Of a stretch of DNA of 32,000 nucleotides, positions 1-30,853 are shown piece by piece; position 1 is the first letter of the stretch; each line of letters opens with the position of its first letter. A model generated the notes under the pieces. The model did not search any database. It worked only from the letters and a program-made list of their open reading frames with translations, and was not told where the DNA came from. A program made the position numbers and the translations under genes. This stretch comes from Coprobacillaceae bacterium. Lineage in GTDB: Bacteria; Bacillota_I; Bacilli_A; Erysipelotrichales; Coprobacillaceae. Where the stretch lies: NCBI GenBank assembly GCA_963675915.1, contig OY780959.1, positions 1,350,001 to 1,382,000 of the forward strand, given 5' to 3'.

Positions 1-1962
1 AAGATCATAAACATCATCATCCATCAAAGTAAATAATTCCATTCTCGTTGGAACCTTTCCTTCTAATTCATCTTTAACCCGGAAATATTCTTCATCAATT
101 AGATCCCTGACAACCCGTTTCCTTTTCGCCATAGATTCGAACATATCGATTAATCGCATATCAAAGTCAACTATGCAACCTACCGGAAACTCAAATGATT
201 GATAATCTCTTTTAATTAATATGTTTTTAGAATAAGATCTTCCACTTAGTAAAAAGGGCGCCTTTCCTGAATTTTCGTAATTTCCGATGAAATCTAATAC
301 ATTCAAGTATTTTTTATTTTCAAACAATCGGAGTCCCCTACCCAATTGCTGCATATATACAACCGGAGATTCTGTCGGTCTTAAGAACATAACCATATCA
401 ACGCCAGGCACGTCAACTCCTTCATTGAACATATCAACAGAGAAAACCACTTTAAGTTCTCCTGTTCTTAATAAAGATATTGCCTGGCTACGCTCTATTG
501 AGTTCTCACCACCGGAACCACTGTAAACCGCTGCCGCTGGCACATTTCTCTTGTTAAACTCTTTAGCCATTCTTTCAGCATGAACCCTACTGCTACAAAA
601 TCCCAAGGCGCATTTCGAATTGTATTTAGAATAATACTTGTATATCAGATCATAACGATTCTTTACAAGAAGTTTTTGATTAAGCTCTTTACCATTATAT
701 TTACCATTTGTTCGACTTATCTTAGAGTAATCTACAGTCTCATCGTAAATACCATAATAGTGAAATGGAACCAACATTCCTTTGTTGATCGCATCTACCA
801 AACTTATTTGATATGGAACTATATAGTCACAAAGCTTGTAGATATCCCTACCATCCATTCGATCTGGAGTCGCCGTAAGACCTAACATAAAACTAGGCTT
901 AAAATAATTCATGATTCTTACATACCCATCATTAATAGCATGATGGAATTCATCGATCACGATATAATCAAAATCATCTGGTTCAAAATAATTTTGGTTT
1001 AAATAATCACTTTTACCCAAACTTGCTACTGAGGCAAAAACAAGATCTGCTTTGGTATCTTTGTAGTCGGAATTGAAAAATCCCACATTAGAAGTCTTCC
1101 TAACCTTCATAAAACTATCGGCAGCTTGCTTAAGAATTTCTTCCCTGTGAGCCACAAATAGGACCCTTTTATATCTTATCGAGTCAAATGCCGCCAAATA
1201 AGTTTTACCGATTCCAGTGGCAGCGAAAACAAGACCTTTGTTTGCACCCTCTTCACGGATTTTATTTAATGAATACAAAGCTTCAATCTGAGCCCCGCGA
1301 GGAAATATAACCTCATGATTATTTTCATCCCTAACCAAATCATATTTTTGAAGTTGTCCGATTGCAGTCGGCTTTTTCCATTCTTTTGAATATTTATTCA
1401 ATTCTTCATCATCCATAATGATAGAATGGGACCTAAAAAGGTCTTCAAAAGTAATAAAAAACTGCTCATAATCTTTTGGATTCATCTGATTATCAAAACG
1501 ATAATTCCACTCAACCCCAGAAGTCAAAGCGCTCCTGGATATATTTGATGAACCAACATAAATCTCATCTTTATTTTCATAATGGAAAATGTAAGCTTTT
1601 GGATGAAATGACCTCTTTTCTTGATCAAACATTCTTAAATCAAGGGAATCTCCAAGCTCGCTTTTAAGCAAATACAAAGCACTTGGCTGCGTGATACCTA
1701 GATAGTTACCAGTAAGCAATCTAACCTTTACACCTCTATTAACAGCAGCATTCAAATCATCAATCAACATCCTAACCCCAGATTCCATAACAAAAGAAAC
1801 AATGATGTCAATATTGATAGCCTGATTAATACTATTTTTCAAGTAATTGTGTAATTGCTTGGTTGAATCATTGAAGCCGGTAATAACATTTGATATTTCA
1901 TCTTGAATATCAATAGTCTCTTTGCAACCAATTACTTCTTCCTTAAGATCATATTTATCCAT
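1..1962 (-). CDS. PLD-like (HKD) nuclease domain fused to an SF2 DExH helicase. The C-terminal part lies beyond the left window edge. It is absent from the supplied ORF track because it has no in-window stop.
   Basis: My own minus-strand translation from ATG 1962-1960 stays open to position 1 (654 codons, MDKYDLKEEVIGCKE...). A GGGAGGGG Shine-Dalgarno lies at 1979-1972, 9 nt upstream. Segments I checked codon by codon: HKD-type motif RSFHPKAYIFHYENKDEIYVGSSNISRSAL; helicase motif I LVFAATGIGKT; motif II VIDEFHH; motif III LGLTATP; motif VI QQLGRGLR. The start overlaps the stop of the upstream methyltransferase gene by 31 nt. Confidence 0.85.
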   Translation of the reverse strand, partial: MDKYDLKEEVIGCKETIDIQDEISNVITGFNDSTKQLHNYLKNSINQAINIDIIVSFVMESGVRMLIDDLNAAVNRGVKVRLLTGNYLGITQPSALYLLKSELGDSLDLRMFDQEKRSFHPKAYIFHYENKDEIYVGSSNISRSALTSGVEWNYRFDNQMNPKDYEQFFITFEDLFRSHSIIMDDEELNKYSKEWKKPTAIGQLQKYDLVRDENNHEVIFPRGAQIEALYSLNKIREEGANKGLVFAATGIGKTYLAAFDSIRYKRVLFVAHREEILKQAADSFMKVRKTSNVGFFNSDYKDTKADLVFASVASLGKSDYLNQNYFEPDDFDYIVIDEFHHAINDGYVRIMNYFKPSFMLGLTATPDRMDGRDIYKLCDYIVPYQISLVDAINKGMLVPFHYYGIYDETVDYSKISRTNGKYNGKELNQKLLVKNRYDLIYKYYSKYNSKCALGFCSSRVHAERMAKEFNKRNVPAAAVYSGSGGENSIERSQAISLLRTGELKVVFSVDMFNEGVDVPGVDMVMFLRPTESPVVYMQQLGRGLRLFENKKYLNVLDFIGNYENSGKAPFLLSGRSYSKNILIKRDYQSFEFPVGCIVDFDMRLIDMFESMAKRKRVVRDLIDEEYFRVKDELEGKVPTRMELFTLMDDDVYDL

Positions 1963-2546
1963 TTCTCATCGCCCCTCCCGACTCTGACATCGTCCGAGAT
2001 CCATTGTTCCAAAATATCAAAAACATCAGTTTCCGCGATTAGTTTTTGCATCTTATCTTCATCCAAATAAGTGAAGTAACGACCATCTATCATACCTTCA
2101 AAATCTCCGTATTTGAACGATGTATAAAGTACGCCACCTGGTTTCAGTGAATTAGCAATTTTGATAATTACATCTATAAGCTTATTGTAGGGAAGATGCA
2201 ATATTGATGCGCAGGCCCATACGCCATCATATGTATTTTCTACATTAAAATCATCAAAAAGTAAACACTTTGTTTTAATGCCGGTATAGGCAGTTGATAA
2301 TTTGCACATTTCTAGCGAACCATCAATAGCCTCAACAACAAAATCTTTGTCCAAGAAATATTTCGTATCCCGACCGCTACCACTTCCGAAATCAAGAATC
2401 ATACTACCAGTTTTCATGAACTTCAAAAATCTATTTTGATTATAATAAAATACAACCGAAGCGGTATTATCAAAATATATTTTTGCATTTTGGTTGTAAT
2501 AGTTTACCGTGCTGTCTTTCATATTATTTTGTTTTATACTCCTCAT
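1932..2546 (-). CDS. Class I SAM-dependent methyltransferase of the small-molecule/Methyltransf_11-like type. It has no DNA-MTase motifs.
   Basis: 204-aa ORF. Motif I ILDFGSGSGRD, an acidic post-I residue (VEAIDGS), and LKPGGVLY (post-II/III Rossmann element). It has no DPPY/NPPY motif and no PCQ/ENV motif. The start (2546 versus an internal ATG at 2522) is not resolved. Confidence 0.75.
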   Translation of the reverse strand: MRSIKQNNMKDSTVNYYNQNAKIYFDNTASVVFYYNQNRFLKFMKTGSMILDFGSGSGRDTKYFLDKDFVVEAIDGSLEMCKLSTAYTGIKTKCLLFDDFNVENTYDGVWACASILHLPYNKLIDVIIKIANSLKPGGVLYTSFKYGDFEGMIDGRYFTYLDEDKMQKLIAETDVFDILEQWISDDVRVGRGDEKWINMILRKK

Positions 2547-2634
2547 AGTTACAGTGAATATTTGAATGAAATTGATCTAACTACTATTTAACTTCGTCAG
2601 CGAGATAATTATTTTACTTTACTTCTAACCAACC

Positions 2635-3129
2635 TTAGGTTTTCAAGTTTCTATTTTTTATAGTCCTTATTAGTATATTCATTTCCTTATCAAAATCTCT
2701 TTTCAGTTCACACTCCCATAATGTTATAACTCGAAAACCCATCTCTTCCAGCAAGCTAATATTTATTAGATCTCTCTCAGTAGTAGTACGAATTTTTTTC
2801 TTCCAAAAGTCTACATTTGTTTTTGGATATTTAAAATGTTTACAATTTTTATGTCCGTGCCAAAAACATCCATTTATAAAAATCGCAATTTTGTATTTAG
2901 GCAAAACGATATCCGGGGAACCTGGATATCGCTTATCATTTTTCCTGAATCTATATCCTTCTTTAAAAAGATAACTTCGAACTCTAACTTCAAATTTAGT
3001 ATCTTTGCCTCGTATTTTTGACATAATGTCACTACGTTTCTCTTTCGAATAAATATCCGTCAAAATATCACCTACCAAAAAAGCATGACCATAGTCAGCA
3101 ACTACAAATAACATATCAATGAAATACAT
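2635..3129 (-). CDS. vsr: Very short patch repair (T:G mismatch) endonuclease
   Basis: KEKRSDIMSKIRGKDTKFEVRVRSYLFKEGYRFRKN...PGSPDIVLPKYKIAIFINGCFWHGH is the canonical Vsr core. The gene lies immediately downstream of the C5-MTase gene. The true start is uncertain; ATG 3129, ATG 3114 and a downstream TTG are all upstream of the conserved core. Confidence 0.9.
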   Translation of the reverse strand: MYFIDMLFVVADYGHAFLVGDILTDIYSKEKRSDIMSKIRGKDTKFEVRVRSYLFKEGYRFRKNDKRYPGSPDIVLPKYKIAIFINGCFWHGHKNCKHFKYPKTNVDFWKKKIRTTTERDLINISLLEEMGFRVITLWECELKRDFDKEMNILIRTIKNRNLKT

Positions 3130-3152
3130 ACTCGCCTACCATTAAAACATTT

Positions 3153-5381
3153 TCATTTAGGAGAAAACGAGAAATCCTCCACACAACGTGACAGCTGAAT
3201 TAGTATATCCATCAACACATCCACAACAATGCTATTACCTGCTTGTTTATATCCCTGTGCCCTTGAAACAACAATATCATAATCATCCGTGAAACCCATC
3301 AATCGATGCGCCTCACGCTCTGATAACATCCTTACTCTACCATCCACCGTAACATAATTGTCAACTCCCGCTCTATGTCGATTACCCATCGTTTTGAGTA
3401 AAGTGCGCGCTACAGGCAAATCTATTACCGGTTTAGTATAGAAGGTTTTCGTACCTCCACTCATAACGTACTTGTATAGTTTAGGGGTTAGAAAATACTT
3501 CTCCTCAATTTCACCTGGATTTCCGTCAACCAAAATTCCACCTGAATCGCTATGGGTAAAATCACCTTCCCGAACATTCTCGATTAAAAAATCCTGCATA
3601 GTAAAAGTCAACTCCTTTTTATCAGGCATGTTAAAATCGGTGACCCTATCAAGATCCTGCCTAATTCCAACGACAATTACTCTTCGTCTAGTTTGTGGAA
3701 CTCCATGATCTTTAGCATCTATTAATTCATACTTAAAATCATATCCAAGTTCTTCAAAAACAGACTTTATAACTCGCCAAGTATTTCCTTTATCGTGGGT
3801 CAGCATACCTCTAACATTTTCATAAATAAAAACTTTTGGTTTTATTTCTTTCACCAGTCTCGCAAACTCATAAAACAATGTACCACGTGTATCCTCAAGA
3901 CCACACTGTTGACCAACCGTTGAAAATGATTGACATGGGCTACCGCCCACAAAAATATCTACTTTTCCTTCAAAGTCGGTACCATCCAAAAGATTAATAT
4001 CCCTGAAATAAAAATCCTCATCAAGATCATAATTTGCCAAATAACTTTGCTTGACAAAGTTGGTTTTGGCCGTTTTATTTTTATACAGGTTATCAACATA
4101 TTTCTTTTTTTCCGTAGAACCATTTAAAGAAAATACAATTTCTTTTTGTTCATCAATATCGTATTCTATTTCGACTTCACCATTGTCACAAGCGAAGACA
4201 ATCTTATGATCAATTTTTAGTCTCTTCAAAGCGAATTCAAAAGCTCCAATACCACTAAATACCGTAGCTACACATAACCTATCATCAAACTCGACATCAG
4301 GATAGTATTCATAAATAGATGTAATTAATGATTCAAGTACATTAACTACTATGCTATTACCTATTTGCCGATATGCTGGCACATTTGGAACGACAACTTT
4401 GAATGAATCAGAAAAGCCCATTAGTCTCAGACATTCGCGATAGCTAAGCTGACGAATAACTCCTCTATATCCATTATATTCCCCAACATAAGCCCTATCC
4501 AAAATGTTATCATTATGCTTGCTAAAATCCAATTTTTCAAAAACGAAGTCTCCATTCCAATTGAATTGCTGATTGGCTTTTTGAGTTTTAATTATCTTAT
4601 TATTAATCCCAGCTCTATTTTTGTATTTAGGGTTTGTAACAAATTCGAATCCTTTTTTACCCAAATAATGATTTGTCGCCACATGTGGTTCCAAATAATC
4701 AAAGAGTGTAGTTTCCAATTTTTTAGGCTTTGGAAATGTAAATTCAACACTATTCCTAAACCCAACCACAAAAATACGTTTTCGGTCTTGAGGTATTCCG
4801 TAATCTTTTGAATTCATAATTTGATAATGAATTTTGTAATCTAGTGAATCAAAAATATTTCTTATTACTTCCCAAGTTTTTCCTTTATCATGGTGAACCA
4901 TACCAACAACGTTTTCATATATGAAAACCTTCGGCTCAATCTCTTTTACTAATCGCGCGTATTCATAAAATAGAGTGCCTCGAGCATCATCAAGGCCACC
5001 CCTTTTACCACTTATAGAAAATGATTGACAAGGGCTCCCTCCGACAAACAAATCAACTTTTCCTTTGTGTTTGGTACCATCAATAAACCTGATGTCTTCA
5101 TACCAACGATTCTCGTCAATATCATAATTTGAAAAATAGCTTTCTTTTACATAATTTTTCTTATTGGTAGAACGATATATTTGTTTAATAATTTCGTTAG
5201 CTTCCTCGTCACTTTTCCCTTTGACAACCTCAAAAATTTCATTTTTTGAGGTTTCCAATTCAATTTCACCATTATCGCAAGCAAAAACTATTTCATATTT
5301 TTTATTTAATTTTTCCAACGCTTGTTCAACGGCACCTATTCCACTAAACACAGTAGCTAACCTTAATTTCTTCAAAAACAT
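3153..5381 (-). CDS. Tandem-fused double DNA (cytosine-5) methyltransferase: two complete Dcm-type catalytic domains in one polypeptide
   Basis: The N-terminal half (about 4300-5381) has motif I ATVFSGIGAVE, IV GGSPCQSFSISG, VI ENVVGM, VIII QDRKRIFVVG and X GNSIVVNV. The C-terminal half (about 3153-4299) has ATVFSGIGAFE, GGSPCQSFSTVG, ENVRGM, QTRRRVIVVG and GNSIVVDV. The segments between motifs VIII and IX (the target-recognition domains) are unrelated between the halves. The start is ATG 5381, or GTG 5390 as in the track. Confidence 0.9.
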   Translation of the reverse strand: MFLKKLRLATVFSGIGAVEQALEKLNKKYEIVFACDNGEIELETSKNEIFEVVKGKSDEEANEIIKQIYRSTNKKNYVKESYFSNYDIDENRWYEDIRFIDGTKHKGKVDLFVGGSPCQSFSISGKRGGLDDARGTLFYEYARLVKEIEPKVFIYENVVGMVHHDKGKTWEVIRNIFDSLDYKIHYQIMNSKDYGIPQDRKRIFVVGFRNSVEFTFPKPKKLETTLFDYLEPHVATNHYLGKKGFEFVTNPKYKNRAGINNKIIKTQKANQQFNWNGDFVFEKLDFSKHNDNILDRAYVGEYNGYRGVIRQLSYRECLRLMGFSDSFKVVVPNVPAYRQIGNSIVVNVLESLITSIYEYYPDVEFDDRLCVATVFSGIGAFEFALKRLKIDHKIVFACDNGEVEIEYDIDEQKEIVFSLNGSTEKKKYVDNLYKNKTAKTNFVKQSYLANYDLDEDFYFRDINLLDGTDFEGKVDIFVGGSPCQSFSTVGQQCGLEDTRGTLFYEFARLVKEIKPKVFIYENVRGMLTHDKGNTWRVIKSVFEELGYDFKYELIDAKDHGVPQTRRRVIVVGIRQDLDRVTDFNMPDKKELTFTMQDFLIENVREGDFTHSDSGGILVDGNPGEIEEKYFLTPKLYKYVMSGGTKTFYTKPVIDLPVARTLLKTMGNRHRAGVDNYVTVDGRVRMLSEREAHRLMGFTDDYDIVVSRAQGYKQAGNSIVVDVLMDILIQLSRCVEDFSFSPK

Positions 5382-5433
5382 CACTCCCACTAAAATTTAA
5401 TTTTGATTAAACCAAAAATGAATATCCAAACCA

Positions 5434-5462
5434 ATTATACCAAATAGTAACCAGATTGTCTG
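5434..5462 (-). promoter_or_regulatory. Candidate internal sigma-A promoter with an extended -10, upstream of the methyltransferase gene
   Basis: Minus strand reads CAGACA (5462-5457), 17 nt, then TGgTATAAT (5442-5434). It lies in the 86-nt gap between the 176-aa ORF and the MTase gene. Confidence 0.45.
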
Positions 5463-5467
5463 TAGTA

Positions 5468-5998
5468 TTATAATTTAAGATTGAAACTATTATCAATAGT
5501 TTCTTTGAAATTATTTCTGGCATCCAAATAAATAACAACTACATTGTCCCCCAATTTTTTAAAAACAACATTACAGCAATCACCTATTAACAAATCATAA
5601 ATTAGTTTTGATGCCTCATTCTCCGTGTCCAGTTTAAAGTATTTTCTATTAGATAGAATCACTGGCTCAGGTACTTCTATATAACTGTAAAAAGTGTTTG
5701 AAGATCGAATATTATCAATGATCTCAACCTGGGGTTTTAATTTTTCTCTAAAAAGGGCTTCTCGTTCCTTAAGTATTACATATCCCGCTATTTTCTCTAT
5801 TGAGAGTAATGTCCTGGTAAAGTCAATATAATACTTATTGTTTCCTAAATTAAACCAATTAAGAACTTCTTTAGAAATGTCACTCATATAAAACGAGCCA
5901 ACGCTTCTTGGTTTGATGCCAATATGCTGTGCAACGATAGGTGACTCTGAATTTGGTGGGGAGACAATCAATTTATTATCAGTTATTGTTAACGACAT
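5468..5998 (-). CDS. Hypothetical protein (176 aa from ATG 5998) with no domain I can recognise
   Basis: ORF on the operon strand. ATG 5998-5996 is preceded by AGGAGA with a 5-nt spacer. It lies 1 nt after the AIPR stop (TAA t ATG), which implies translational coupling. The track's longer 187-aa version starts 32 nt inside the AIPR gene. I found no HTH, Walker, GHKL or clear PD-(D/E)XK motif. Confidence 0.65.
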   Translation of the reverse strand: MSLTITDNKLIVSPPNSESPIVAQHIGIKPRSVGSFYMSDISKEVLNWFNLGNNKYYIDFTRTLLSIEKIAGYVILKEREALFREKLKPQVEIIDNIRSSNTFYSYIEVPEPVILSNRKYFKLDTENEASKLIYDLLIGDCCNVVFKKLGDNVVVIYLDARNNFKETIDNSFNLKL

Positions 5999-5999
5999 A

Positions 6000-8090
6000 T
6001 TATCTCCTATCTTTGTCCGAATATCCTTCATTTTTTAATTTTTCTTCTATCGAACATATTTTTATACTTTGCTTTTCTGATGGGATTTTTTTTGTGAAAT
6101 CTAGAGCACTGAAAAGAAAACTAATATCAATTTCAGACAAAACCCCTAGTTTTTTCCCGTACTCAAGTCCATCTTTCCAATAATCGCTCCCCATATTTAT
6201 TACATGAGTTTGAGCTTCAATACCGGCTAACTGCTTTTGTTCCTTCTTTCCACTATCTTCACGGTTCTTTTCCTCATCTAGTGAAATCAAACTTTGTATA
6301 AATTCATCCGTAAATGTCCAATTTTCCTTAAGAGCTCTTTTCCAACAAATCTCTTTCTTACACCATTCAGTAACATTCAGAGTCAATCTATCGTCTCGTG
6401 TGATGAATTCAAAAACCTCATATGCCAATATTTTTATTTGCCGCCTAAGCGCCGGATACAAATCTTGTTTTTTCCAAACTCGTAAAAAATCGAACCCTAG
6501 CCCCTTATGTCCAAGTTTATCTACCTGATCGAATATTAGAGCCAGGGAATAAGTTACAATATTCATTCGGTATGCTTTGATAGACTTATACCAGTCTTCA
6601 CTAGATACAAGTTTTTCAGTTTCCTTGAACATTATTGCGATAGCAATTGATTTTTGAAAATAGTACTTATTGAATTCGTTGCTGTTTTTCTCCCACTGTT
6701 TCTCAATTATTTTTGCGAATTCCCGCATATTACGTTGATTACCTTTCGATACAATTTCCGGCTTACGTTCATAGGTCATTAAATATTTTGCGAGTTGTAC
6801 TTTATTAATAACTTGATTTTTTGGGTACCTTTTCTTGAATTTTGTGACCTGTGCCCTTGAAAGTTTCATTTGCTCTTGAGTATATTGCCCTTTTGCCCTT
6901 TCATAATACCATACAGTATCATATATTTCATTTTGTTTAGATGGAGCCAATATTTTTCTACTTAACTCTTCAAATCTTCTATGGAAAGGACTATTTGAGA
7001 AAAAGTCTGACTCCTCAACTTTATTTTGACTGTTCGCATATCTTGCGATATTTGGTATCATCTCGTTCGCCCTGTCACTTGACAATATTGACAGTTTTAT
7101 AGGCACTTGGACTCGCTCAACTACGAGCTTGTCTTTTATTACCGCATTCGCTATTGATGCTGTTGTTTGTCCTCCGTTTATAATTTGGAAATCCGTCAAT
7201 TTCGTTATAACTAAGCCATTTTCATTTTCTACCACTTCAATATCAGTAGCCGTAGCAGCTATACCATTATTGTAAGCAAAAAACAATTCCGGTTCATTTT
7301 TTATTGTGTTTCGTATCCCCTTGTTGATTTTCCCTCGTACACTCAAAAACGATCTAACATTCCCCTCCAAAAGTCTTGAACCATATTTAATGTAAAGCTT
7401 AGCAAGCAAATCACCATTAATGACTCCTAAATATGAGCTATACTCTTCTTCGGTGCTCTCAAGTGCTTTGACTGCATAGATTCCATCGTGACCGAATTCT
7501 GAAACATTAATTTCTAATTTTTCCCGTTCCCTAGTTGACATTATATTATTATAGTATTTTTCAATATCGTAAATTCTAACTTCAATATTTTTACCTTTGA
7601 ACTTACCAATATGATTAACATTTAGATCACGAGTAACTATCTTATCTGTCAACACATATATTATTATTTTATATGTGTTGTTAAACAACTCCTTTAAAAG
7701 TTGTGCCGCTTGATTCGCCTGTGAACTCTCATCACAATTTTCCGTAATATAATCGTCAATTGAAAACTCCAAATAATTTGTTACCCTTTTTACCGAGTTA
7801 CTTGCATCTGTAGTCGTCAATGATTCAATATTCGGAGCTCCGGAAAAATCGCAAACAAATAATCGCAAAGTATTATCCGATTCGTCAAGTGTTATTCCAT
7901 CGATTCGCCCACGTCTATTTCTTGGTCCGATAACTTCGACATCATATAAATCAACATCTAAAATTTCTTCGATATCAATAAGTAATTTAACATACATAGC
8001 CATAAATTCTGTCGTGTCATCCGAAATATTAATTAGTGAGTTATTTTCTATCTCATACAACATTTCTTTTCTAAATTCTTCAATTTCCAT
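6000..8090 (-). CDS. AIPR (abortive-infection phage-resistance) family protein
   Basis: 696 aa. It has the central FQIINGGQTTASI motif I associate with AIPR. Its size and position match the recurrent ATPase/Z1/PD-(D/E)XK/AIPR/Dcm/Vsr neighbourhood. A GAGGGG RBS precedes ATG 8090. Confidence 0.75.
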   Translation of the reverse strand: MEIEEFRKEMLYEIENNSLINISDDTTEFMAMYVKLLIDIEEILDVDLYDVEVIGPRNRRGRIDGITLDESDNTLRLFVCDFSGAPNIESLTTTDASNSVKRVTNYLEFSIDDYITENCDESSQANQAAQLLKELFNNTYKIIIYVLTDKIVTRDLNVNHIGKFKGKNIEVRIYDIEKYYNNIMSTREREKLEINVSEFGHDGIYAVKALESTEEEYSSYLGVINGDLLAKLYIKYGSRLLEGNVRSFLSVRGKINKGIRNTIKNEPELFFAYNNGIAATATDIEVVENENGLVITKLTDFQIINGGQTTASIANAVIKDKLVVERVQVPIKLSILSSDRANEMIPNIARYANSQNKVEESDFFSNSPFHRRFEELSRKILAPSKQNEIYDTVWYYERAKGQYTQEQMKLSRAQVTKFKKRYPKNQVINKVQLAKYLMTYERKPEIVSKGNQRNMREFAKIIEKQWEKNSNEFNKYYFQKSIAIAIMFKETEKLVSSEDWYKSIKAYRMNIVTYSLALIFDQVDKLGHKGLGFDFLRVWKKQDLYPALRRQIKILAYEVFEFITRDDRLTLNVTEWCKKEICWKRALKENWTFTDEFIQSLISLDEEKNREDSGKKEQKQLAGIEAQTHVINMGSDYWKDGLEYGKKLGVLSEIDISFLFSALDFTKKIPSEKQSIKICSIEEKLKNEGYSDKDRR

Positions 8091-8122
8091 GATAAACCCC
8101 TCGTCTCATTTTCATTTTTACG

Positions 8123-9070
8123 CTATATTTTTGTTACTATTTTTAGATCTCGCATATAATCATTTATTGTGCTAATTGCGATCTCATAAGAAACACCTTT
8201 AATACCTTTTGGAATACATTCTTTTGACAACTTAGGAAAAGATTTATTAACTATATAACTATTAATTTTTTTCACCAGGTAATTGTAGTCGTCATAATAA
8301 GGTATCCGCTTATATCCAATGTTTGCCAATTTGTCGTAGAACTTCTCAATTACTTCAATATCATCAAGCAAACTACTTATCTTTTCAACAATTATATTTA
8401 GGTTTACCCCATTATTATCTACAGGTGTTGTACGTTCAAGAGAAACTACAACCAAATTACCCTCGATTTCGCTATCCAGTTGTTCAATCGAAGAAATTTT
8501 AACTGAATCATTGCCCATAATTATCGACTTGACTTCAAACCATTCATTGTCAATTAGGAAGTCTTTTTTCATGAACTCACTGCCACCCCACGCATCAATA
8601 GATTCAAAATTAGAGTGTCTTTTAAGCATATGGTTTTTTAAAAATACCAATTCCGCTAATAAACCTTGAATCTCAATATTACTTAAATGCGCCTCGCTAA
8701 CTTGTTTAAAAAGAGTTTTCCACAATAGCCATCTCTTGTAAGAATTTCGTAAGAGATTTTTTTGTTTGATTTCGGTGAGGTACCCATATATATCATAAAT
8801 CAAATTTATGAAGACTTCTTCGAATTCAGGTTTCTTCAATTCAAATGTAAGTCTATTCTTTTTCGGATTTCCCACTTCAAATAAATCTATTTCAATGACA
8901 TCCGTACTTTTTACCTCAAAATTATCACAAGAACCATCTACAGCGAAAGACATATTCCCATGGTAGTAACCAACATAAATATCAGCTGACAACTCGCTAT
9001 CCAACAAAGTAAAATTATCGGATAGTTTGCATTTGTTTAATTTGTTTATTAAATCATTTTTACTCATCAT
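8123..9070 (-). CDS. PD-(D/E)XK-motif nuclease-fold protein (DUF4420-like)
   Basis: DFLIDNEWFEVKS gives a D...E-x-K signature in the C-terminal half. At about 315 aa it is the typical third gene of Z1/AIPR clusters. The likely start is ATGATGAGTAA (9070 or 9067), overlapping the Z1 stop at 9062-9060. The track's 9121 start lies 62 nt inside Z1. Confidence 0.7.
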   Translation of the reverse strand: MMSKNDLINKLNKCKLSDNFTLLDSELSADIYVGYYHGNMSFAVDGSCDNFEVKSTDVIEIDLFEVGNPKKNRLTFELKKPEFEEVFINLIYDIYGYLTEIKQKNLLRNSYKRWLLWKTLFKQVSEAHLSNIEIQGLLAELVFLKNHMLKRHSNFESIDAWGGSEFMKKDFLIDNEWFEVKSIIMGNDSVKISSIEQLDSEIEGNLVVVSLERTTPVDNNGVNLNIIVEKISSLLDDIEVIEKFYDKLANIGYKRIPYYDDYNYLVKKINSYIVNKSFPKLSKECIPKGIKGVSYEIAISTINDYMRDLKIVTKI

Positions 9071-11858
9071 AATAGTCGCCCTCGTCTTGCATACCCAATC
9101 TTGATAACGATTGTTCAACAATATTCATTTGGTACCTTATCAGTTTTGGCTTATTTCCTTTAAAGTTTGGGAAACCGATACTTATGGCAACTAGTGATGA
9201 TCTTAACGAATCATCAATTTTATCTAATATTTTTTTTGTTTCTTCGGTAGAATTTATCCCCTCAATAACGTTCGGTTGAATTATGTAAAGTGTGAGTAGT
9301 GGATTTCGATACTTGTCAAATATAAAGAAATCAGACTGTGATAAAGAACTAGAATCACTAATTTGTAGTTTTTCTTTTTTTACGTGTTCGACATTTGTGC
9401 AGCCAAATCTTCCATCCATTGGTCCTCCTAAACGTCTACGTTTACCAGAAATTCTTAGATAATTTGCACCAATTTTGGTATCAACTCGTCGTACTGTTTC
9501 TTTAACCAATATGTCATCTGTAAGTTGGATTTCTTCACCACTCCCAGATTGAATTGCTATGTCCCATTTTTGATATTCTTCGGTATCATTAATGTAATCT
9601 ATTATCGCACTTCTTTGATATTTTGTGTTTTCAATTGGAAACTCTAATGAATGCAATAAATCGATAACGTATCTATTGTCCACATTTTTAAATCCTATTG
9701 TATTGAATTCTTTTGTTAGATAGTACTCTTGTTTCAATTTTCCCAATCTTGATTTCACAATATTCAAGTTATCTCTATTAGTATTATTGTCCCCATAGAT
9801 AAATGGTGTTTCGATCAAACTTCCGTTCATATCCACCCACACATCTTGTGACTTTGCAGTTCTCATTTTATTTCTAGCAGTTACCAATATGCTAGAATCA
9901 TTTCTCACTCTTATTCCAAAATCTAATGGTGTTAAAGATGACTTCTTGTACTGTGATATGGAATTTTTTAAGTCACTAATTGAAACATTGATATTCATGA
10001 ATAACTCCTGTGTAACATCAAGCATCCATACTCTACAAAGTTTTTCGTAACCAGTCCTGTATCCGAACCAGCGGCCCATTTGCATAAGAGTATCATAAGC
10101 GCTAGAATTTCGATAAAAATAACTGACAATTAATCCTTCTAGCGTCAATCCTCTGGAAAGGGTTATCCCCCCAACTGCGATCACACGATAGCTAAGATTA
10201 TCTTCCTTAAATTGGTTATATTTCAAATCATCTTTAGACTTTTGGTTTTTTATGATTATTTCAATATTTACTGTTGATCTCCCAAGAACTTCTCTAATAT
10301 TCTTCCAAGTATAATTGCTATCCGTGCATATTTCTTCGTATTCTTTTACAAAAGTTTCTTGCAAATCTACCATCTCCGGATTGTTGTTTCTTACAGCCCC
10401 ATCGGGATGATTAGCACAAACCTTTATGGAATTTTTCAATTCCTTCACATACTCTTCTATTTGAAATGCAACTTTTTCTTGGATACTAACGAACCTTGAT
10501 ACATTAACCATCATGGATCTATGCGATTTAACATAACCATCTAGATCCCTTATAGCGTTTGCAATAAAAAAGGTTCTAATTGCATATTTCAATGATTCTG
10601 GCAATCTATCGAAATCAGCCTCTTTTTTGTGTATCAATGGTAGTATTCTATGAATTGAATTTTCCGGATTTAATTCACCAAGGTCAGTCTCTATTGTTTT
10701 AATACAATCCTTTAAGTCACCTTTGTTTTCCAAATCATACGGATCACCAAACAATCTACTCGAACTTACGTAATTAGATGGTGATTCCAGGCAATAGATA
10801 TAATCTTTTGGAAACAAAGAAGCATGTTCCATTTCCTCCTTGTTATCAGGAGCAATAAACACATTCGCAAATGGCGTAGCAGTAAATCCGACATAACTTG
10901 TTCTTTTAAATTTATCCAACAAAGATGATATCAATTTATTCGTTTTAGTAGGATCATCACCCTCTTTATTCGTGTTCAAAGAAGCATAATCCGCTTCATC
11001 ATCAATTATCAATATTGAATGATCTATCTTTCCTGATTCATCCGAAATATTTGCATTCGTAATCCATCCTAAAAGCTTATTCAAATAGTTAACATTTTTT
11101 TTCATGACAAATATTATTGGTGATTTAACCTGATCCAAAGATATTTTCAATGTTTGCGCATTGATACTATTGAAGTCATGCTTTGTGGTAGTTACAGAAA
11201 TTGGTCTTTTTTCGATGTTTGTCTCACAATATTTCGCAACACCTATTGACGAAGTCTTTTTCAATAGCGCCTCATCGCTAGAATAGCCTAAAAAACCGTC
11301 ATCAATTCTTAATTGAGTTTGTTTTCTTAGTTCGTTATCAGTACCTGCGAGGACAACAATAAGTTTGTAACCAGCATCAGCAGCCTTATTGATAATACCG
11401 ATAAAGTTTGCTGTTTTACCAGACTGAACATCGCCAATAACTAAGCCCACTCTACTGAAAAAACGTCCAGAATCCGGATCCCCTAATAAATCAGTAATAT
11501 CATCTGTAACTTCATCGATATTGTCCAAGATTCTTTGATTAAAATTTCCAGTTCCTTTTAAATATTTTTGATACCTATCCCAGTAATACATTTCGATTTC
11601 TGTGCGTCGAGATTTGAACCATGGTGCAAATTCACCACTTGTCAATATCTTATTAGGTTTTATAATTTGAAAGTTCAATCTTGCTTTAGCTTCTTTTTTT
11701 ATCCGCTCCAATATTTCATCAGAAACTGGAGCCTGATTGAAAAATCCCGTCAAAACACCATTGTATGCCGAAATTTTATCATCTATCATAATCTCATCCA
11801 AATCTTGAATATTAGAAACCATATTTATAAAACGATTCAAATGTTCTTCATAATTCAT
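9060..11858 (-). CDS. Z1-domain protein (SF2 helicase/ATPase-like)
   Basis: 932 aa. Walker A VIGDVQSGKTANF, Walker B/DEAD-like ILIIDDEADYAS, motif III-like GFTATPFAN. The length and gene neighbours are typical of Z1 proteins. It starts 6 nt after the stop of the ATPase gene. Confidence 0.8.
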   Translation of the reverse strand: MNYEEHLNRFINMVSNIQDLDEIMIDDKISAYNGVLTGFFNQAPVSDEILERIKKEAKARLNFQIIKPNKILTSGEFAPWFKSRRTEIEMYYWDRYQKYLKGTGNFNQRILDNIDEVTDDITDLLGDPDSGRFFSRVGLVIGDVQSGKTANFIGIINKAADAGYKLIVVLAGTDNELRKQTQLRIDDGFLGYSSDEALLKKTSSIGVAKYCETNIEKRPISVTTTKHDFNSINAQTLKISLDQVKSPIIFVMKKNVNYLNKLLGWITNANISDESGKIDHSILIIDDEADYASLNTNKEGDDPTKTNKLISSLLDKFKRTSYVGFTATPFANVFIAPDNKEEMEHASLFPKDYIYCLESPSNYVSSSRLFGDPYDLENKGDLKDCIKTIETDLGELNPENSIHRILPLIHKKEADFDRLPESLKYAIRTFFIANAIRDLDGYVKSHRSMMVNVSRFVSIQEKVAFQIEEYVKELKNSIKVCANHPDGAVRNNNPEMVDLQETFVKEYEEICTDSNYTWKNIREVLGRSTVNIEIIIKNQKSKDDLKYNQFKEDNLSYRVIAVGGITLSRGLTLEGLIVSYFYRNSSAYDTLMQMGRWFGYRTGYEKLCRVWMLDVTQELFMNINVSISDLKNSISQYKKSSLTPLDFGIRVRNDSSILVTARNKMRTAKSQDVWVDMNGSLIETPFIYGDNNTNRDNLNIVKSRLGKLKQEYYLTKEFNTIGFKNVDNRYVIDLLHSLEFPIENTKYQRSAIIDYINDTEEYQKWDIAIQSGSGEEIQLTDDILVKETVRRVDTKIGANYLRISGKRRRLGGPMDGRFGCTNVEHVKKEKLQISDSSSLSQSDFFIFDKYRNPLLTLYIIQPNVIEGINSTEETKKILDKIDDSLRSSLVAISIGFPNFKGNKPKLIRYQMNIVEQSLSRLGMQDEGDYYDE

Positions 11859-11864
11859 ATCAAA

Positions 11865-13316
11865 CTATTCTCTCATTCCTCTTAATTTTTGAATAAATTC
11901 TTCCCTTCCCGAATCAGTTAAAGTTGCAATATATGCATCTATAGCTTCATTTTTAGTCATGCCCCACAGCTCCATTAAAGTTGAAACCGCATCTTCTATC
12001 CTTGCATCTATTCTATTATCAGGGGTTGCTTTTTCGTTGAAATTATTACCTTTGGCAATATTTGAATAAATGGCATCATAAGGGATATCACTTTCAATAC
12101 CGCCTATTATTTTCTCAAAAGCTTTGTATTGATCTTTATCTAAAGATTCGACAAATTTCGTGATCATCGGTCTGTCTACGTCAATAAATAACTTGACGCC
12201 TTTGGATGTTTCTTGTAGATTCCAGGAGTTATCAAAACTTTTTTCGACTATTTTCCGCCCCTTGTACACATGTGTGTATTCGCTTGCTGAAACAGTATCT
12301 TCTACAGCTTTAATAAGCTTGTCCTTGATTATATCTGGTATTGTCGCCCGACTTTTCTTTATGTCTATGTCCCAAATATCATCCAAACTATTGGGAATAT
12401 CCACCATTACCCTTGCAAGCTTAAACAGTTCCTCTTTTGAATGTAGTCTAAACCATGTACCCCAAATAATCAGCCTTTTGTTTCTATAGATGTAGAAGCC
12501 CTGATTTTTTCGTAAATTCTCTTTCCCTCCAGCTGCAATTATTTCACTTTCCTTAAGTTTGCTGATTGACGGAAGTACATACTTGTTTACTGAAATCGGA
12601 ACATCATTAACGTAAATTTTTTGTTCTCTAAATATTTGTGTTGCAGGATTGTTTTTTATGAACGGGTCTAACGGTTTTACCCGATTTCCATTTACGAATA
12701 TCCTAAGATTCCTATCGAGCAACCTGTGATATATTAAGGCAATATGATCTTCGGCTTTGACCACTAACTCGTTGAAATTTCTATCAAATTTCAAACTAGA
12801 AAGTTTAATTCTATCAAAATTTTCCCAAAGTACTATTGTCCCTGATTGATGATTGTCAAGTATATCCAAATTAGGAATAAAATCCAATTCATCGCTAGTA
12901 TACTCGTTAATGCTCCAGTCATTTGTCAACAAAATGTTATCGATATCCCACTGGTATGTTGAAATAACGTTATTCTTCTTTGATACAACTGTAAACCTTC
13001 TACACTGAGACAGTGATGCTGACTTCATACCTAACCCGAATCTCCCAAGATCATCTTCAGATCTTTCCTCATTAGGGTTACGTGATCCATACCTCATGGC
13101 TAAAAATAGCTCATTATTATCCATACCTACTCCATTGTCAACAATTTGCAAATATTTTCGTTCCTTGTCTGCTCTGGAGATTATTTGAATATCATTTGCC
13201 TTTGCAGAAATTGAATTGTCAATTATATCCGCAAGAGCTGATTCAAAAGAATATCCTATCGATCTCATTGACTCAATAAGACTTGGAGCACAAGGAATAT
13301 TTATACGCTGTTTCAT
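11865..13316 (-). CDS. GHKL-superfamily (MutL/MORC-like, HATPase_c_3-type) ATPase
   Basis: Bergerat-fold motifs: N box LADIIDNSISA, G1 box IVDNGVGM, G2 box GRFGLGMKSAS. Start ATG 13316 (MKQRINIP) is preceded by an AGGGGGAA RBS. The track's GTG start at 13358 would overlap the predicted -10 element. Confidence 0.85.
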   Translation of the reverse strand: MKQRINIPCAPSLIESMRSIGYSFESALADIIDNSISAKANDIQIISRADKERKYLQIVDNGVGMDNNELFLAMRYGSRNPNEERSEDDLGRFGLGMKSASLSQCRRFTVVSKKNNVISTYQWDIDNILLTNDWSINEYTSDELDFIPNLDILDNHQSGTIVLWENFDRIKLSSLKFDRNFNELVVKAEDHIALIYHRLLDRNLRIFVNGNRVKPLDPFIKNNPATQIFREQKIYVNDVPISVNKYVLPSISKLKESEIIAAGGKENLRKNQGFYIYRNKRLIIWGTWFRLHSKEELFKLARVMVDIPNSLDDIWDIDIKKSRATIPDIIKDKLIKAVEDTVSASEYTHVYKGRKIVEKSFDNSWNLQETSKGVKLFIDVDRPMITKFVESLDKDQYKAFEKIIGGIESDIPYDAIYSNIAKGNNFNEKATPDNRIDARIEDAVSTLMELWGMTKNEAIDAYIATLTDSGREEFIQKLRGMRE

Positions 13317-13359
13317 GTGATTTCCCCCTAAAACCTTAAAATATCGTGTCATTAACACA

Positions 13360-13388
13360 ATTATAGCATTAAATATTGTTGTTTTCAG
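13360..13388 (-). promoter_or_regulatory. Candidate sigma-A promoter of the defence operon, with an extended -10
   Basis: Minus strand reads CTGAAA (13388-13383), 17 nt, then TGcTATAAT (13368-13360). This is about 44 nt upstream of ATG 13316. Confidence 0.5.
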
Positions 13389-13506
13389 CCCCTATTGTCA
13401 TTTATTTCATATTTGTGTAACAATTATTTCAAGAAAAGTATCATTATTTTTGCGCTATTTAATCGAGTAGGAGAAAATAAATGAATTTTATTTCCGACCT
13501 CTCACA

Positions 13507-13536
13507 CCACCGTACGTGCCGTTCGGCATACGGCGG
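13507..13536 (-). ncRNA. Group II intron domain V (catalytic hairpin), shortened 30-nt form with a CGC triad
   Basis: Minus strand: CCGCCGUAU-GCC-GAAC-GGC-AC-GUACGGUGG. This gives a 9-bp lower helix, a 2-nt AC bulge on the 3' side, a 3-bp upper helix and a GNRA-like tetraloop. The triad position reads CGC instead of AGC. Confidence 0.8.
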
Positions 13537-13543
13537 TTTAAAT

Positions 13544-14827
13544 CTATACTAAAATATGTTTTAACTGATATTGGTCTAGCAGTGATGCTAGACCATTTCT
13601 TTTGAGTACTTTGTTTGTTATTTTGGTTCGCAGAAACGTGCTTGCACAGCGGGCATATGATTTCCTGGAATTTGACCATGATTCATATTGCCATCTTTGG
13701 GCCCCTAGTTTTCTCAACTGTTTTCTACGGTTCTTGATGGTTTTCCATTTCTTCCACAGGTACATTCGGATTCTAAATCTAATCCAGCCATCCAGCCTTG
13801 CACATTTGGATTTGAAATTTCCGATTCGGTAGTAATTGATCCACCCGAAAATAAGTTGCCTTATTTTCATTCGGCGAAATTCCCATGATACTGACCAACT
13901 TCTATTAGTCAGTTCTCTGAGCTTATCTTTCAAGATAGCTATTGATTTAGCATGTGGTTTGGCTTTCCATGACTGGCTGAAGTCGTCATAGTAGAATCCA
14001 AATCCCAAGTATTTGATATCATTTGGTTTGGATACTTTGCTTTTGGTCATGTTGACTTTGAGCCCCAACTTCTTTTCAATGAATTTTCGCACATTCTCCA
14101 TAACTCTATCTGCCGCTTTACTGCTACCGACAAATATCATGCAGTCATCGGCGTATCTAGTAAAATGCAACCCTCTAACCTCCAATTCTTTGTCGAGTTC
14201 GTTAAGTACGATATTACTCAGCAATGGGCTTAACGGCCCTCCTTGGCTTGATCCGATTATTGACTCTTTGTATTCTCCATCAATGCTTATTCCACTTACC
14301 AGGAATTTTCTTATCAGTGATACAATTTCACCATTCTTGACATCTTTCATGATTAAGGTAATCAATTTATCGTGGTTGATGTTATCAAAGAATTTCTCCA
14401 AGTCAATGTCAACAATCCATTGGAAACCATCATTCATGTATTCCAATGATTTGATGATTGCCATCTCACAATTTCTATTAGGTCTAAAACCGTAGCTGTT
14501 ATCGCTGAACAAGGGTTCATAGATAGGAATCAATACCTGGGCGATGGCTTGTTGAACGAACCTGTCGAGCACTGTTGGCACTCCTAGGTTTCTAACTCCA
14601 CCATCTAGTTTAGGTATTTCCACTCTTAATACAGGCTGTGGTTTGTATTTCCTGTTTTGTATCATTTCCTTTATTTCATCAAGATGTTCATCGAGATGTC
14701 CTTTGAGGTCCAATACTTTCATTCCATCAACGCCACTAGCGCCTTTGTTTCGTTTTACTTGGGTATATGCCTTTTTGAGATTGATATCACTAAGCATTTC
14801 TTCAAGTAATGTGTTATCAGTATTCAT
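13544..14827 (-). CDS. Group II intron-encoded reverse transcriptase/maturase with no HNH endonuclease domain
   Basis: RNKGASGVDG (RT0/1), GVPTVLDRFVQQAI, SQGGPLSPLLSNIVL (RT4), RYADDCMIF (RT5 YADD), and a maturase X region WINYYRIGN. The C-terminus is basic and has no CxxC/HNH. The best start is ATG 14827 (MNTDNTLLEEML) with GGAGGT 9 nt upstream. The track's 14941 start is a TTG. Confidence 0.9.
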   Translation of the reverse strand: MNTDNTLLEEMLSDINLKKAYTQVKRNKGASGVDGMKVLDLKGHLDEHLDEIKEMIQNRKYKPQPVLRVEIPKLDGGVRNLGVPTVLDRFVQQAIAQVLIPIYEPLFSDNSYGFRPNRNCEMAIIKSLEYMNDGFQWIVDIDLEKFFDNINHDKLITLIMKDVKNGEIVSLIRKFLVSGISIDGEYKESIIGSSQGGPLSPLLSNIVLNELDKELEVRGLHFTRYADDCMIFVGSSKAADRVMENVRKFIEKKLGLKVNMTKSKVSKPNDIKYLGFGFYYDDFSQSWKAKPHAKSIAILKDKLRELTNRSWSVSWEFRRMKIRQLIFGWINYYRIGNFKSKCARLDGWIRFRIRMYLWKKWKTIKNRRKQLRKLGAQRWQYESWSNSRKSYARCASTFLRTKITNKVLKRNGLASLLDQYQLKHILV

Positions 14828-15352
14828 ATTTCCGTTACCTCCATTGATTTCGCTATTCATCAGGCTCACTTCCCCTACATTCTTCTTTCGGGCCTTGATA
14901 GTGTGTTCGTCTGTCTTTGAGGTTTCGCGTGATGAAATCAAGCCTAATTTTAATAACTGATAGATTCATTCAGTCCTTCACTCCATGGCCATTACAGCCA
15001 CTTCTTCGCTACTACGACGTCTGCTGACTTCTTGCGATTCGTTGTTACTAGGATTGCTCCCTCGCAAGATCTCCCGGGATAAGGTCATATCTCTTTCACC
15101 CCATATATCCGCCACATTTACATATAATAGTTGTGTTCCGCAACCTCTTATGACTTCGCGTTGTTTGGCACGCTCGTCCCCATTACATGCCTGATATGTG
15201 ATTCGTGTACCTCGGACCAGGGTTTTGCCTCCATCTTCCTTCAGATTCCACCTCACGATGGACACCCTTGATATTGGCTAGTGGTTGGCAGTTGCGACGT
15301 CACCCCCACAGTGGACTTTCACCACCTAGATATATGCCATGCCCGGCATACC

Positions 15353-15385
15353 AAAAAAAAAAGAACGTCAACCAAACGTTCTTTT
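15353..15385 (-). terminator. Rho-independent terminator of the surface-protein gene, which also forms the 5'-exon target of the intron
   Basis: Minus strand: AAAAGAACGU-UUGGUUG-ACGUUCUUUU, followed by a run of U (plus-strand A10 at 15353-15362). The stem pairs 15359-15368 with 15376-15385. It lies 48 nt after the stop at 15433. Confidence 0.8.
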
Positions 15386-15432
15386 CATAAAATAATAATG
15401 TACTAGATGTTTATTAATTATGGGTTATATGC

Positions 15433-17508: not shown

Positions 17509-17620
17509 TTACCTTTCCCTTTCTTAAGTCACTAAATAGATTAAAATTTTCAAAGCAAATAAATTTTATCAAAATGCAATTTTCAATGTAACTGGCCAAA
17601 TGGCTAGTCTTGTATACTGA

Positions 17621-17657
17621 AAAACGGAAACCCTTGTTAATTGGGAGTTTCCGTTTT
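17621..17657 (-). terminator. Rho-independent, potentially bidirectional terminator after the LuxR-type regulator gene
   Basis: AAAACGGAAAC(CC) at 17621-17633 pairs with (GGGA)GTTTCCGTTTT at 17643-17657. It has A/T tracts on both sides and lies 16 nt downstream of the stop at 17673. Confidence 0.75.
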
Positions 17658-17672
17658 ATATTATTACGCTTT

Positions 17673-20090: not shown

Positions 20091-20325
20091 ACTTTCCCCT
20101 CTAAACCAAAATAATCACTACAGTTAACTAATCCCCAAGCAACTTATCGGATTTAATATCCAAATAAATCCTTATTATATTATTAGACATCATATTTTAT
20201 GAGTCAAACATAATAAACTTGATAGTCCGATTTAAAATTCCGGGAAAGTTCCATTAGTAAAAGTTTAGGTACAATTATGCATCCATTCATGATTTGTACC
20301 CTAACAGCATCATTTAGAATGTTTG

Positions 20326-21538: not shown

Positions 21539-21555
21539 TGTAAGTGTGCAAATTA

Positions 21556-26332: not shown

Positions 26333-26584
26333 TAAAATACCTCCATATTTTTCGTTATGAACATTGTACTACTTTTTTACTTTCAAAACGTTGTTCTTGC
26401 ATCTTTAGAAAAATAAGTTCAAATATTATCTTTGAAAAGTGACTGATCAACGTAAAAAGTTCAACATCTCAAAGTAAAAATCAATAATATATCGATAATT
26501 GTCGATTTTGGTGACAAAGTTACTGAACAATTGAAAAATTCAGGTTATAATCCCAGTATAAACAAATTAAGAGGAGGTAACTTT

Positions 26585-27067
26585 ATGGATCTTTCAACCA
26601 TAGTACTATATACATTCGCAACAGTCTTGCTGATTGTTTCACTAATAAAGGATAAAGCCAAAACCAAAAAAGCGGTCAAAAAAGGCTGGATGGCCTTTGT
26701 CAAGATTTTACCGGTCCTGATTCCCCTGTTTTTGATTGTCGGGATTGTCCTTAACATCCTAACGCCAATGACAATCAAGCAGCTGCTTGGTAGTGACTCT
26801 GGTATCTTCGGAGTATTGATTGGCATGATCATTGGATCAGCTGCTTTCATCCCACCATTTATCACTTATCCTTTGGGTGCTGAACTTTTGTCCAATGGAG
26901 CCGGTTATCCTCAGGTCGCCGCATTTATGACCACCCTGATGGCGGTCGGACTGGTTTATTGGGTAGCTGAAGTAAAATTCTTCGGTAAAAAAGCTGTGGC
27001 CTTGCGTAATGGTCTGGCGTTTATCGCCTCAGGAATCGTAGCAGTCGTAGTCTGGGGGTTAATGTAA
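26585..27067 (+). CDS. Integral membrane permease, subunit 1 of a split two-gene permease
   Basis: ATG 26585 follows AAGAGGAGG. About 160 aa, four to five hydrophobic segments. Its stop overlaps the next start (TAATG at 27065-27069). Confidence 0.7.
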   Translation: MDLSTIVLYTFATVLLIVSLIKDKAKTKKAVKKGWMAFVKILPVLIPLFLIVGIVLNILTPMTIKQLLGSDSGIFGVLIGMIIGSAAFIPPFITYPLGAELLSNGAGYPQVAAFMTTLMAVGLVYWVAEVKFFGKKAVALRNGLAFIASGIVAVVVWGLM

Positions 27068-30686: not shown

Positions 30687-30853
30687 CAGTTTCACCGCCT
30701 CTTGGTTGATTTTAGATCCAATAAGTCCCTTATTGGATCAGACTATATTATCAATTATAGCATCATCTTCCCAATTGCTCATCATGATATGCTTATAACC
30801 AGGAAATATCTGAATTTATTTCAATTTCTTGGTTATTCTAGGGTATTGGCCAA

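Follow-up and report, generated by a model that had tools for sequence, protein, structure and literature searches.

In a 32,000-nt stretch of DNA from a Coprobacillaceae bacterium (assembly GCA_963675915.1, contig OY780959.1, positions 1,350,001 to 1,382,000; this full stretch is referred to as the window), the AT-rich left 13.4 kb holds nine open reading frames (ORFs) on the minus strand, which occupy positions 1..13358 (rightmost start at 13358 or 13316). We propose, with a probability of about 0.7, that this block is a defence gene cluster of two independent modules that lie head to tail on one strand, and that it was probably acquired horizontally. Module A (2635..13358, minus strand), recognized with Pfam, PADLOC and NCBIfam models, appears to be an operon related to the MZA system; module B (1..2546, minus strand), recognized with Pfam models and as a conserved gene pair, joins a small S-adenosylmethionine (SAM)-dependent methyltransferase (MTase) to a phospholipase D-type (PLD) nuclease-helicase. 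This proposal rests on the domains identified, on catalytic motifs that are intact, on synteny that is conserved and on a compositional anomaly. Both modules are of known kinds, and the cluster is a sound example of a known island type, not new biology; for the specific variants, above all the module B cassette, the searchable literature offers no description.

An earlier note, made from the letters of the window, had described nine minus-strand genes from 13316 to position 1 and read them as a stacked, probably horizontally acquired defence island of at least two modules. The ORF calls confirmed the nine genes, and the overall reading is supported by our analysis. All junctions listed in that note were reproduced exactly with internal start codons that give sensible N-termini, evidently the starts it had chosen. 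Thus, a 32-nt gap separates the DUF4420 and AIPR genes, a 1-nt gap the AIPR gene and a 176-aa ORF, an 86-nt gap the 176-aa ORF and the Dcm gene (start at 5381), and a 23-nt gap the Dcm and Vsr genes; the Vsr gene and the SAM-MTase gene are 88 nt apart as called, or 112 nt with ATG 2522 as the MTase start, and the SAM-MTase and PLD-helicase genes overlap by 31 nt. By the models of PADLOC, Pfam and NCBIfam, eight of the nine proteins belong to defence-type families. The claim that every recognisable product is a nucleic-acid ATPase, helicase, nuclease or MTase holds for these eight, which fall into such Pfam families, while the ninth, the 176-aa protein, has no family. The division into two modules was upheld as well: the SAM-MTase/PLD-helicase pair stands alone in 78 of 80 other genomes, and the MZA-type gene set is present in none of the related module B loci.

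The GC content is 33.6% in the block, 40.7% in the flank (15352-32000) and 41.1% in the intron between them. The mean GC of 60-nt lines was 0.336 in the block versus 0.407 in the flank (Mann-Whitney p = 2e-25). Spot counts of three such lines had previously been taken to indicate a larger contrast; these counts are numerically exact (0.25, 0.367 and 0.45), but line 8101 is extreme and largely intergenic and the contrast was overstated, i.e. the drop in GC is real and amounts to about 7 points, not to about 15-20. Along the window the profile is not flat: a single-change-point fit places the GC break at 13,500, and codon usage shifts too. The GC content at third codon positions (GC3) is 0.25-0.34 in the nine block genes and 0.37-0.53 in 11 of 12 flank genes. 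Moreover, leave-one-out synonymous-codon log-likelihood ratios (LLR) are positive in all nine block genes and negative in the flank genes except for one, which encodes a DUF6273 secreted or surface protein (15433..17508, minus strand; LLR +0.075, GC3 0.28, overall GC 0.39). The shift in GC and codon usage is consistent with horizontal acquisition. Because the DUF6273 gene has block-like codon usage, the limit of the foreign DNA is uncertain, and such DNA may reach beyond the intron to about 17.5 kb.

It is improbable that the block is not foreign and that its low GC reflects the gene-specific or amino-acid composition of genes long resident in the chromosome of this lineage. Such a history would fit a contrast of just 7 GC points, the lack of a visible integrase, tRNA or flanking repeat, and the likewise low GC3 of the neighbouring DUF6273 gene; however, the shift sits in synonymous positions and in the leave-one-out codon usage of all nine genes, the change point matches the end of the operon, and both modules are found elsewhere in unrelated neighbourhoods, across phyla. 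As in a defence island, at least two unrelated defence systems are adjacent, with modules A and B independent of each other in other genomes, and the block is compositionally anomalous relative to the flank, the codon LLR changing sign between the two.

The earlier note saw neither an integrase nor a transposase in the visible part of the block, and 1..13400 indeed contains none. No tRNA was found in the 32-kb window, and a tRNA or integrase as the anchor of the island was accordingly rejected. In a DNA search of the block against plasmids and phages, plasmids matched only at the conserved group II intron core and phages gave no match. All source proteins that we tested, those of the flank included, are singletons at 90% clustering; the best non-self homologues of the flank amidohydrolase are 72% and then 67% identical (the latter from [Clostridium] fimetarium), followed by those of Cellulosilyticum and Lachnospiraceae. 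Judged by these homologues, the host looks like a sparsely sampled clostridium of the Lachnospirales type, with no near relative on record.

Module A and its relatives

The MZA system reportedly comes from Gao et al. 2020. Our statements on it rest on PMC9523054 and on the PADLOC and NCBIfam (NF041932-NF041935) models. In mzaABCDE, mzaA encodes a sigma factor-like protein (MzaA), not an MTase; MzaA is often absent from related systems, and a C5-MTase is named as a core gene (PMC9523054). The association of DCM and Vsr with these operons has also been described (PMC2292703).

The first gene of module A (11865..13316, minus strand) encodes a GHKL (MutL/MORC-like) ATPase that resembles MzaB (Pfam HATPase_c_3 8e-37; PADLOC MzaB 1.4e-75); with the NCBIfam MzaB model NF041932 it scored 312 bits (4.8e-93) versus a cut-off of 850, which indicates family-level homology only. 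It is followed by a gene at 9060..11858 (minus strand), which lies between the GHKL and DUF4420 genes. The DUF4420 gene (8123..9070, minus strand) encodes an MzaD-like protein of the PD-(D/E)XK nuclease fold (Pfam DUF4420 9e-50; PADLOC MzaD 3.6e-16; NCBIfam MzaD 9.5e-22, 78 bits versus a cut-off of 420), and the next gene (6000..8090, minus strand) an MzaE-like AIPR protein (Pfam AIPR 3e-92 together with AIPR_N; PADLOC MzaE 7.5e-75; NCBIfam MzaE 2e-99, 334 bits versus a cut-off of 1050). One further protein of the block matched an MZA model (PADLOC 1.3e-119; NCBIfam 1.1e-143, 480 bits versus a cut-off of 1500). In total, module A has a collinear MZA-like gene order, B-C-D-E. Because its scores lie far below the equivalog cut-offs and MzaA was not found, we regard module A as a distant restriction-modification (R-M)-like system of the MZA/paraMORC type, i.e. 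as a relative of MZA and not an orthologue. Moreover, it adds to the MZA gene set a fused double Dcm, a Vsr and the 176-aa protein.

The Dcm gene (3153..5381, minus strand) encodes a 745-aa protein that is a tandem fusion of two complete C5-cytosine DNA MTases (Pfam DNA_methylase 6e-139, in two stretches); the best of 64 PADLOC MTase models was MTase_II (1.2e-144). The two halves are 42% identical and each has the PCQ, ENV, QxRxR and GNS motifs; by contrast, their variable regions, which correspond to target recognition, could not be aligned with each other. The gene that follows (2635..3129, minus strand) encodes a Vsr very-short-patch repair endonuclease (Pfam Vsr 3e-33; PADLOC Vsr 1.1e-31; NCBIfam TIGR00632 138.8 bits, above the cut-off of 97.85).

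Four loci from metagenomic relatives (L081-L084) keep the MZA-type order of genes, Dcm and Vsr included, in a six-gene form and at about 45% identity. Module A and these six-gene relatives have the full list of components in common, i.e. methylase, Vsr, GHKL protein, helicase, nuclease and AIPR protein, and also the predicted logic, in which the methylase provides the self-mark; in L081-L083 Vsr is part of the operon. They differ in three respects: Vsr is proximal in the operon in the relatives and distal here; the relatives have a single Dcm, whereas module A has a tandem fusion of a different Dcm lineage; and module A has an extra small protein gene between the AIPR and Dcm genes. With the single Dcm of the relatives, the double Dcm shares only 22-26% identity, and it was therefore read as swapped in. 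Its N-terminal half is 67% identical to a Dcm fragment in another locus, L086. As a separate observation, a 52-aa ORF with a weak DUF3427 match follows the Dcm gene in L081 (21072..21230) and L082 (17274..17432), perhaps left over from a neighbouring Type IV enzyme.

The extra gene of module A (5468..5998, minus strand) encodes a 176-aa protein of an unnamed family, whose start at 5998 was confirmed by an exact 176-aa database entry (P0245). The protein had no match in Pfam, PADLOC or NCBIfam, and 32 members of its family had none in Pfam. It has 47 homologous cluster representatives. All three homologues that could be placed lie directly after an AIPR gene, and one of these then precedes a Dcm gene; the sub-arrangement AIPR/small protein/Dcm recurs in L085-L087. 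Because the placed homologues adjoin AIPR genes, the 176-aa protein is probably a conserved accessory of this sub-lineage. Its AlphaFold (AF2) model has a mean confidence (pLDDT) of 94.9, and the best folds in the Protein Data Bank (PDB) are the C-terminal DNA-recognition domain of BfiI, plant B3/ARF domains and the N-terminal domain of LlaJI.R1 (E = 0.17, TM ~0.36), which agree with one another in being B3-like DNA readers although the matches are weak. Based on the model, the protein is possibly a B3-like DNA-binding subunit, and it may represent a new B3-like DNA-recognition subunit of MZA-type systems. As a candidate for MzaA it was rejected, since it matches no PADLOC, NCBIfam or Pfam model.

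The MzaB-like gene is preceded only by a promoter region and the intron. The module A operon probably starts from a promoter-like site with an extended -10 element (13360..13388, minus strand; a consensus match only). Two more promoter-like sites, likewise consensus matches only, precede the Dcm gene (5434..5496, minus strand), one at 5496..5467 and one at 5462..5434 with an extended -10 element (TGGTATAAT). An 'own promoter' had been claimed for the 86-nt gap before the Dcm gene; the two sites are indeed present, but such matches are no commoner than in shuffled sequences (73 in 1..15600 versus 67.5 +/- 9.2 in shuffles). In R-M systems, separate promoters for the modification and restriction genes are normal.

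Module B in this and other genomes

The PLD-helicase gene (1..1962, minus strand) encodes a protein of the SauUSI family with a PLD (HKD) nuclease and a superfamily 2 (SF2) DExH helicase (Pfam PLDc_2, ResIII and Helicase_C). Of its 830 residues, 654 are encoded inside the window, and the C-terminus lies left of the edge; the full protein (P0125) was obtained by homology search. It has a single HKD motif (PLDc_2 9e-12), and the HxK...GSSN, GxGKT, DEFH and QQLGRGLR motifs, including H120 and K122, are invariant in 28 homologues. The best solved relative is SauUSI (7CLG; phmmer 2e-84, Foldseek 1e-40), with residues 49-740 of the protein aligning to residues 52-747 of SauUSI at 25-26% identity. 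In SauUSI, the nuclease spans residues 1-191, the ATPase 221-617, an alpha-helical coupler 618-805 and the SRA target-recognition domain (TRD) 806-953 (PMC7913695).

Both proteins have an N-terminal single-HKD PLD nuclease, a DExH SF2 motor and an alpha-helical coupler, residues 600-830 of the protein encoded here (the last ~230) being predicted to be helical. By contrast, SauUSI (953 aa) has a C-terminal SRA/DUF3427 TRD and the protein here (830 aa) has none: its last 278 residues gave no Pfam match at E <= 10, to DUF3427 or any other family, and DUF3427 is likewise missing from the full-length homologues in L001 and L005. A further difference is that the helicase here, unlike SauUSI, is obligatorily paired with a class-I SAM MTase. 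We conclude that the PLD-helicase appears to be a SauUSI-type motor nuclease that lacks a reader of 5-methylcytosine (5mC) and ends at the coupler. The absence of this reader removes the apparent conflict with the resident Dcm.

PADLOC labels the PLD-helicase 'mREase_IV' (2e-94), and SauUSI is its closest solved structure. Nevertheless, we consider it unlikely that the protein is a true Type IV enzyme of the SauUSI kind, cutting DNA with 5mC or 5-hydroxymethylcytosine: of the 945 positions of the PADLOC profile, the match takes in only 36-572, which correspond to the nuclease and helicase, the protein is 830 aa long and thus finishes where the SauUSI coupler does, without DUF3427/SRA, two apparently active C5-MTase domains adjoin it and would risk self-restriction, and it is coupled to a SAM MTase in 78 of 80 genomes. 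A SauUSI-type methyl-directed reading was rejected on account of the missing SRA/DUF3427 domain.

The partner gene (1932..2546, minus strand) encodes a small class-I SAM-dependent MTase of 204 aa as called (Pfam Methyltransf_25/11/12). ATG 2546 has no ribosome-binding site; by contrast, AGGAG lies just upstream of ATG 2522 and homologues begin equivalently, for which reason the true start is probably ATG 2522. The best PDB match is RPA2492 (3E23, 9e-24), an uncharacterised structural-genomics protein, followed by MTases of small molecules and proteins.

We surveyed module B with one genome per species, which gave 80 loci with a 58-63% identical helicase; the contig scan gave no locus with more than 63% identity to it. 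The loci are mostly from Lachnospiraceae, and also from Negativicutes and some Bacteroidota bins. In 78 of the 80, the gene immediately before the helicase gene encodes a homologue of the MTase. The overlap between the two genes is 31 nt in 35 of the ~54 loci in which it could be measured, and conservation of the SAM-binding motifs is 95% or higher. Beyond the gene pair, no neighbour is conserved across the 80 loci; in 37 loci, the neighbours include AAA_15/AAA_21, AbiEii, Fic, Vsr and PBECR4 proteins and transposases as well as many metabolic genes. Because the pair is kept with variable flanks, it can be regarded as a self-contained, laterally mobile cassette. There are more than 8,000 homologues of the helicase at E <= 1e-30, and some 90%-identity clusters hold about 2,000 sequences; thus, the cassette is probably abundant. 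As an aside, in L005 (Parasporobacterium paucivorans) a protein with DUF1643 and DUF6508 is encoded directly upstream of the cassette (8509..9399).

No description of the module B cassette was found in the searchable literature. MANTIS (formerly Gao_RL) comes nearest to it in concept and offers a precedent: there, MtsD, a TRD-less SauUSI-like PLD-ATPase, cuts unmethylated DNA after recognition by an MTase-containing complex (preprint 10.64898/2026.09.23.753747). Both systems thus contain an MTase and a TRD-less SauUSI-like effector with a PLD nuclease and an SF2 ATPase. However, MANTIS has four genes, i.e. MtsA (DUF499 AAA+), MtsB (DUF3870), MtsC (an N6-adenine MTase) and MtsD, whereas there are two here, and its N6-adenine MTase has DPPY and a TRD, whereas the MTase here is a ~200-aa protein of the Methyltransf_25 type and not of the DNA type. 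With no conserved neighbours past the pair, the four-gene set of MANTIS was not found in the 80 loci.

In total, we tentatively suggest, as a possibility at clearly less than even odds, that the cassette is a defence system of two genes which is very common in gut Firmicutes and has so far gone undescribed; in it, a SauUSI-type motor nuclease would have lost its 5mC reader and would rely on a translationally coupled non-DNA-type class-I MTase for discrimination or licensing. The MTase could serve in trans as a subunit for specificity or sensing, or its methylation target could be something besides a DNA recognition site. A role of the pair outside defence, as a housekeeping unit for DNA repair or nucleic-acid processing, has little to recommend it, given the patchy, cross-phylum distribution of the cassette, the lack of any conserved neighbour besides the pair in 80 species, the recurrence of defence-type neighbours (AAA_15/21, AbiEii, Fic and Vsr), and the N-terminal HKD nuclease and SauUSI-like coupler, which are features of restriction enzymes; in its favour are the resemblance of the MTase to small-molecule or protein MTases, that of the helicase core to the repair helicases RadD and XPB as well, and the many metabolic genes among the neighbours in other genomes.

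Proposed mechanism and points against it

The activities, methylation sensitivities and protein partnerships in this section are all what we infer from the evidence above. In module A, the fused double C5-MTase, apparently expressed from its own promoter, would mark host DNA with 5mC; its two different target-recognition regions suggest that it may act on the two strands of an asymmetric site or on two separate sites. Vsr would repair the T:G mismatches that arise from deamination of 5mC at Dcm sites, and the 176-aa protein, which is encoded after AIPR throughout the sub-lineage, would be an accessory subunit and possibly a B3-like DNA-binding module. In module B, the nuclease-motor would most likely be the effector against foreign DNA, and the translationally coupled MTase would supply a discrimination or licensing step in place of the reader domain of SauUSI that is missing here.

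Several observations weigh against this account or parts of it. The NCBIfam MZA scores (78-480 bits versus cut-offs of 420-1500) reach between one fifth and one third of the equivalog thresholds, and none of the nine block proteins matched MzaA in the PADLOC or NCBIfam models. Since MzaA is a sigma factor and none was found here, methylation dependence of the restriction side of module A is only inferred. The Dcm is not related to the one in the nearest operons and may be separately expressed, and for the 176-aa protein, assignment to the B3-like domains has little statistical weight (E = 0.17). The module B MTase resembles small-molecule and protein MTases, has neither DPPY nor PCQ and has no room for a DNA TRD; a DNA-protective role is therefore doubtful. 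Finally, the adjoining DUF6273 gene has the same codon usage as the island, and the left end of the block lies outside the window, with mobility genes not seen.

On our preferred reading of a two-module defence cluster, module A illustrates how restriction machinery of the MZA or paraMORC type may be re-equipped by a swap of the MTase; the incoming Dcm is two-headed, a hint that the target may be asymmetric, and the system has gained a small subunit that has no name. The Dcm swap and the small subunit are handles on target choice in multi-ATPase systems. Module B is the more useful lead, since it joins a well-understood motor nuclease scaffold to an MTase that is unlike a DNA methylase. Should the cassette be a defence system, its current annotation as a methyl-directed Type IV enzyme is a mislabel, which would misguide predictions of the DNA that can be introduced into gut Clostridia.

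The group IIC-type intron and the flank

Next to the block lies a complete intron of the group IIC type (13462..15351, minus strand; Rfam RF02001, RF01998 and RF00029), which the earlier note did not report. Its domains D1-D4 scored 133.6 bits (RF02001) and 45.2 bits and its D5/D6 region 47.6 bits in Rfam; its reverse transcriptase (RT)/maturase ORF (13544..14941) has RVT_1 and GIIM and no endonuclease (En) domain. The 5' end of the intron (GUAUGCCGGGCAUGG, at 15351), which we take to resemble that of the Oceanobacillus iheyensis IIC intron, lies 6 nt past the stem of a predicted intrinsic terminator, within the U-run. This terminator of the upstream DUF6273 gene (15358..15386, minus strand) has a 12-pair stem followed by a T-run. 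Insertion just after an intrinsic terminator is a hallmark of class C introns. A compact ribozyme, an En-less RT/maturase and insertion just downstream of a terminator are shared with the bacterial group IIC (class C) introns, the intron here being classed by these features.

About 100 nt separate the intron from the GHKL start, and they hold the promoter-like site. The codon usage of the intron is flank-like (LLR -0.069); therefore, the intron is best regarded as an independent insertion outside the defence modules and not as the vehicle of the island. As the mobility element of the island it was rejected for this flank-like codon usage and for its being of the terminator-targeting IIC type.

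The rest of the flank encodes ordinary regulators and enzymes of metabolism, namely a LuxR/MalT-type STAND regulator, a LacI protein, an Sde182-like protein, an aldo-keto reductase, a short-chain dehydrogenase/reductase (SDR) and an amidohydrolase. The STAND-type regulator (17673..20090, minus strand) is an 805-aa protein with an nSTAND3/AAA_16 nucleoside triphosphatase domain, MalT-like tetratricopeptide repeats and a C-terminal LuxR/GerE helix-turn-helix; the codon usage of its gene is like that of the flank, and nothing evident ties it to the defence block. Two half-size ORFs (26531..27067 and 27067..27660, both plus strand) abut, and each matches the N-terminal ~130 of the 294 positions of ArsP_1; they look like the two parts of a permease pair. 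Finally, an ORF at 30069..30695 (minus strand) with CDGSH and Fer4_19 iron-sulfur domains overlaps an ORF without a family on the opposite strand (30096..30941, plus strand), the latter of which is probably spurious.

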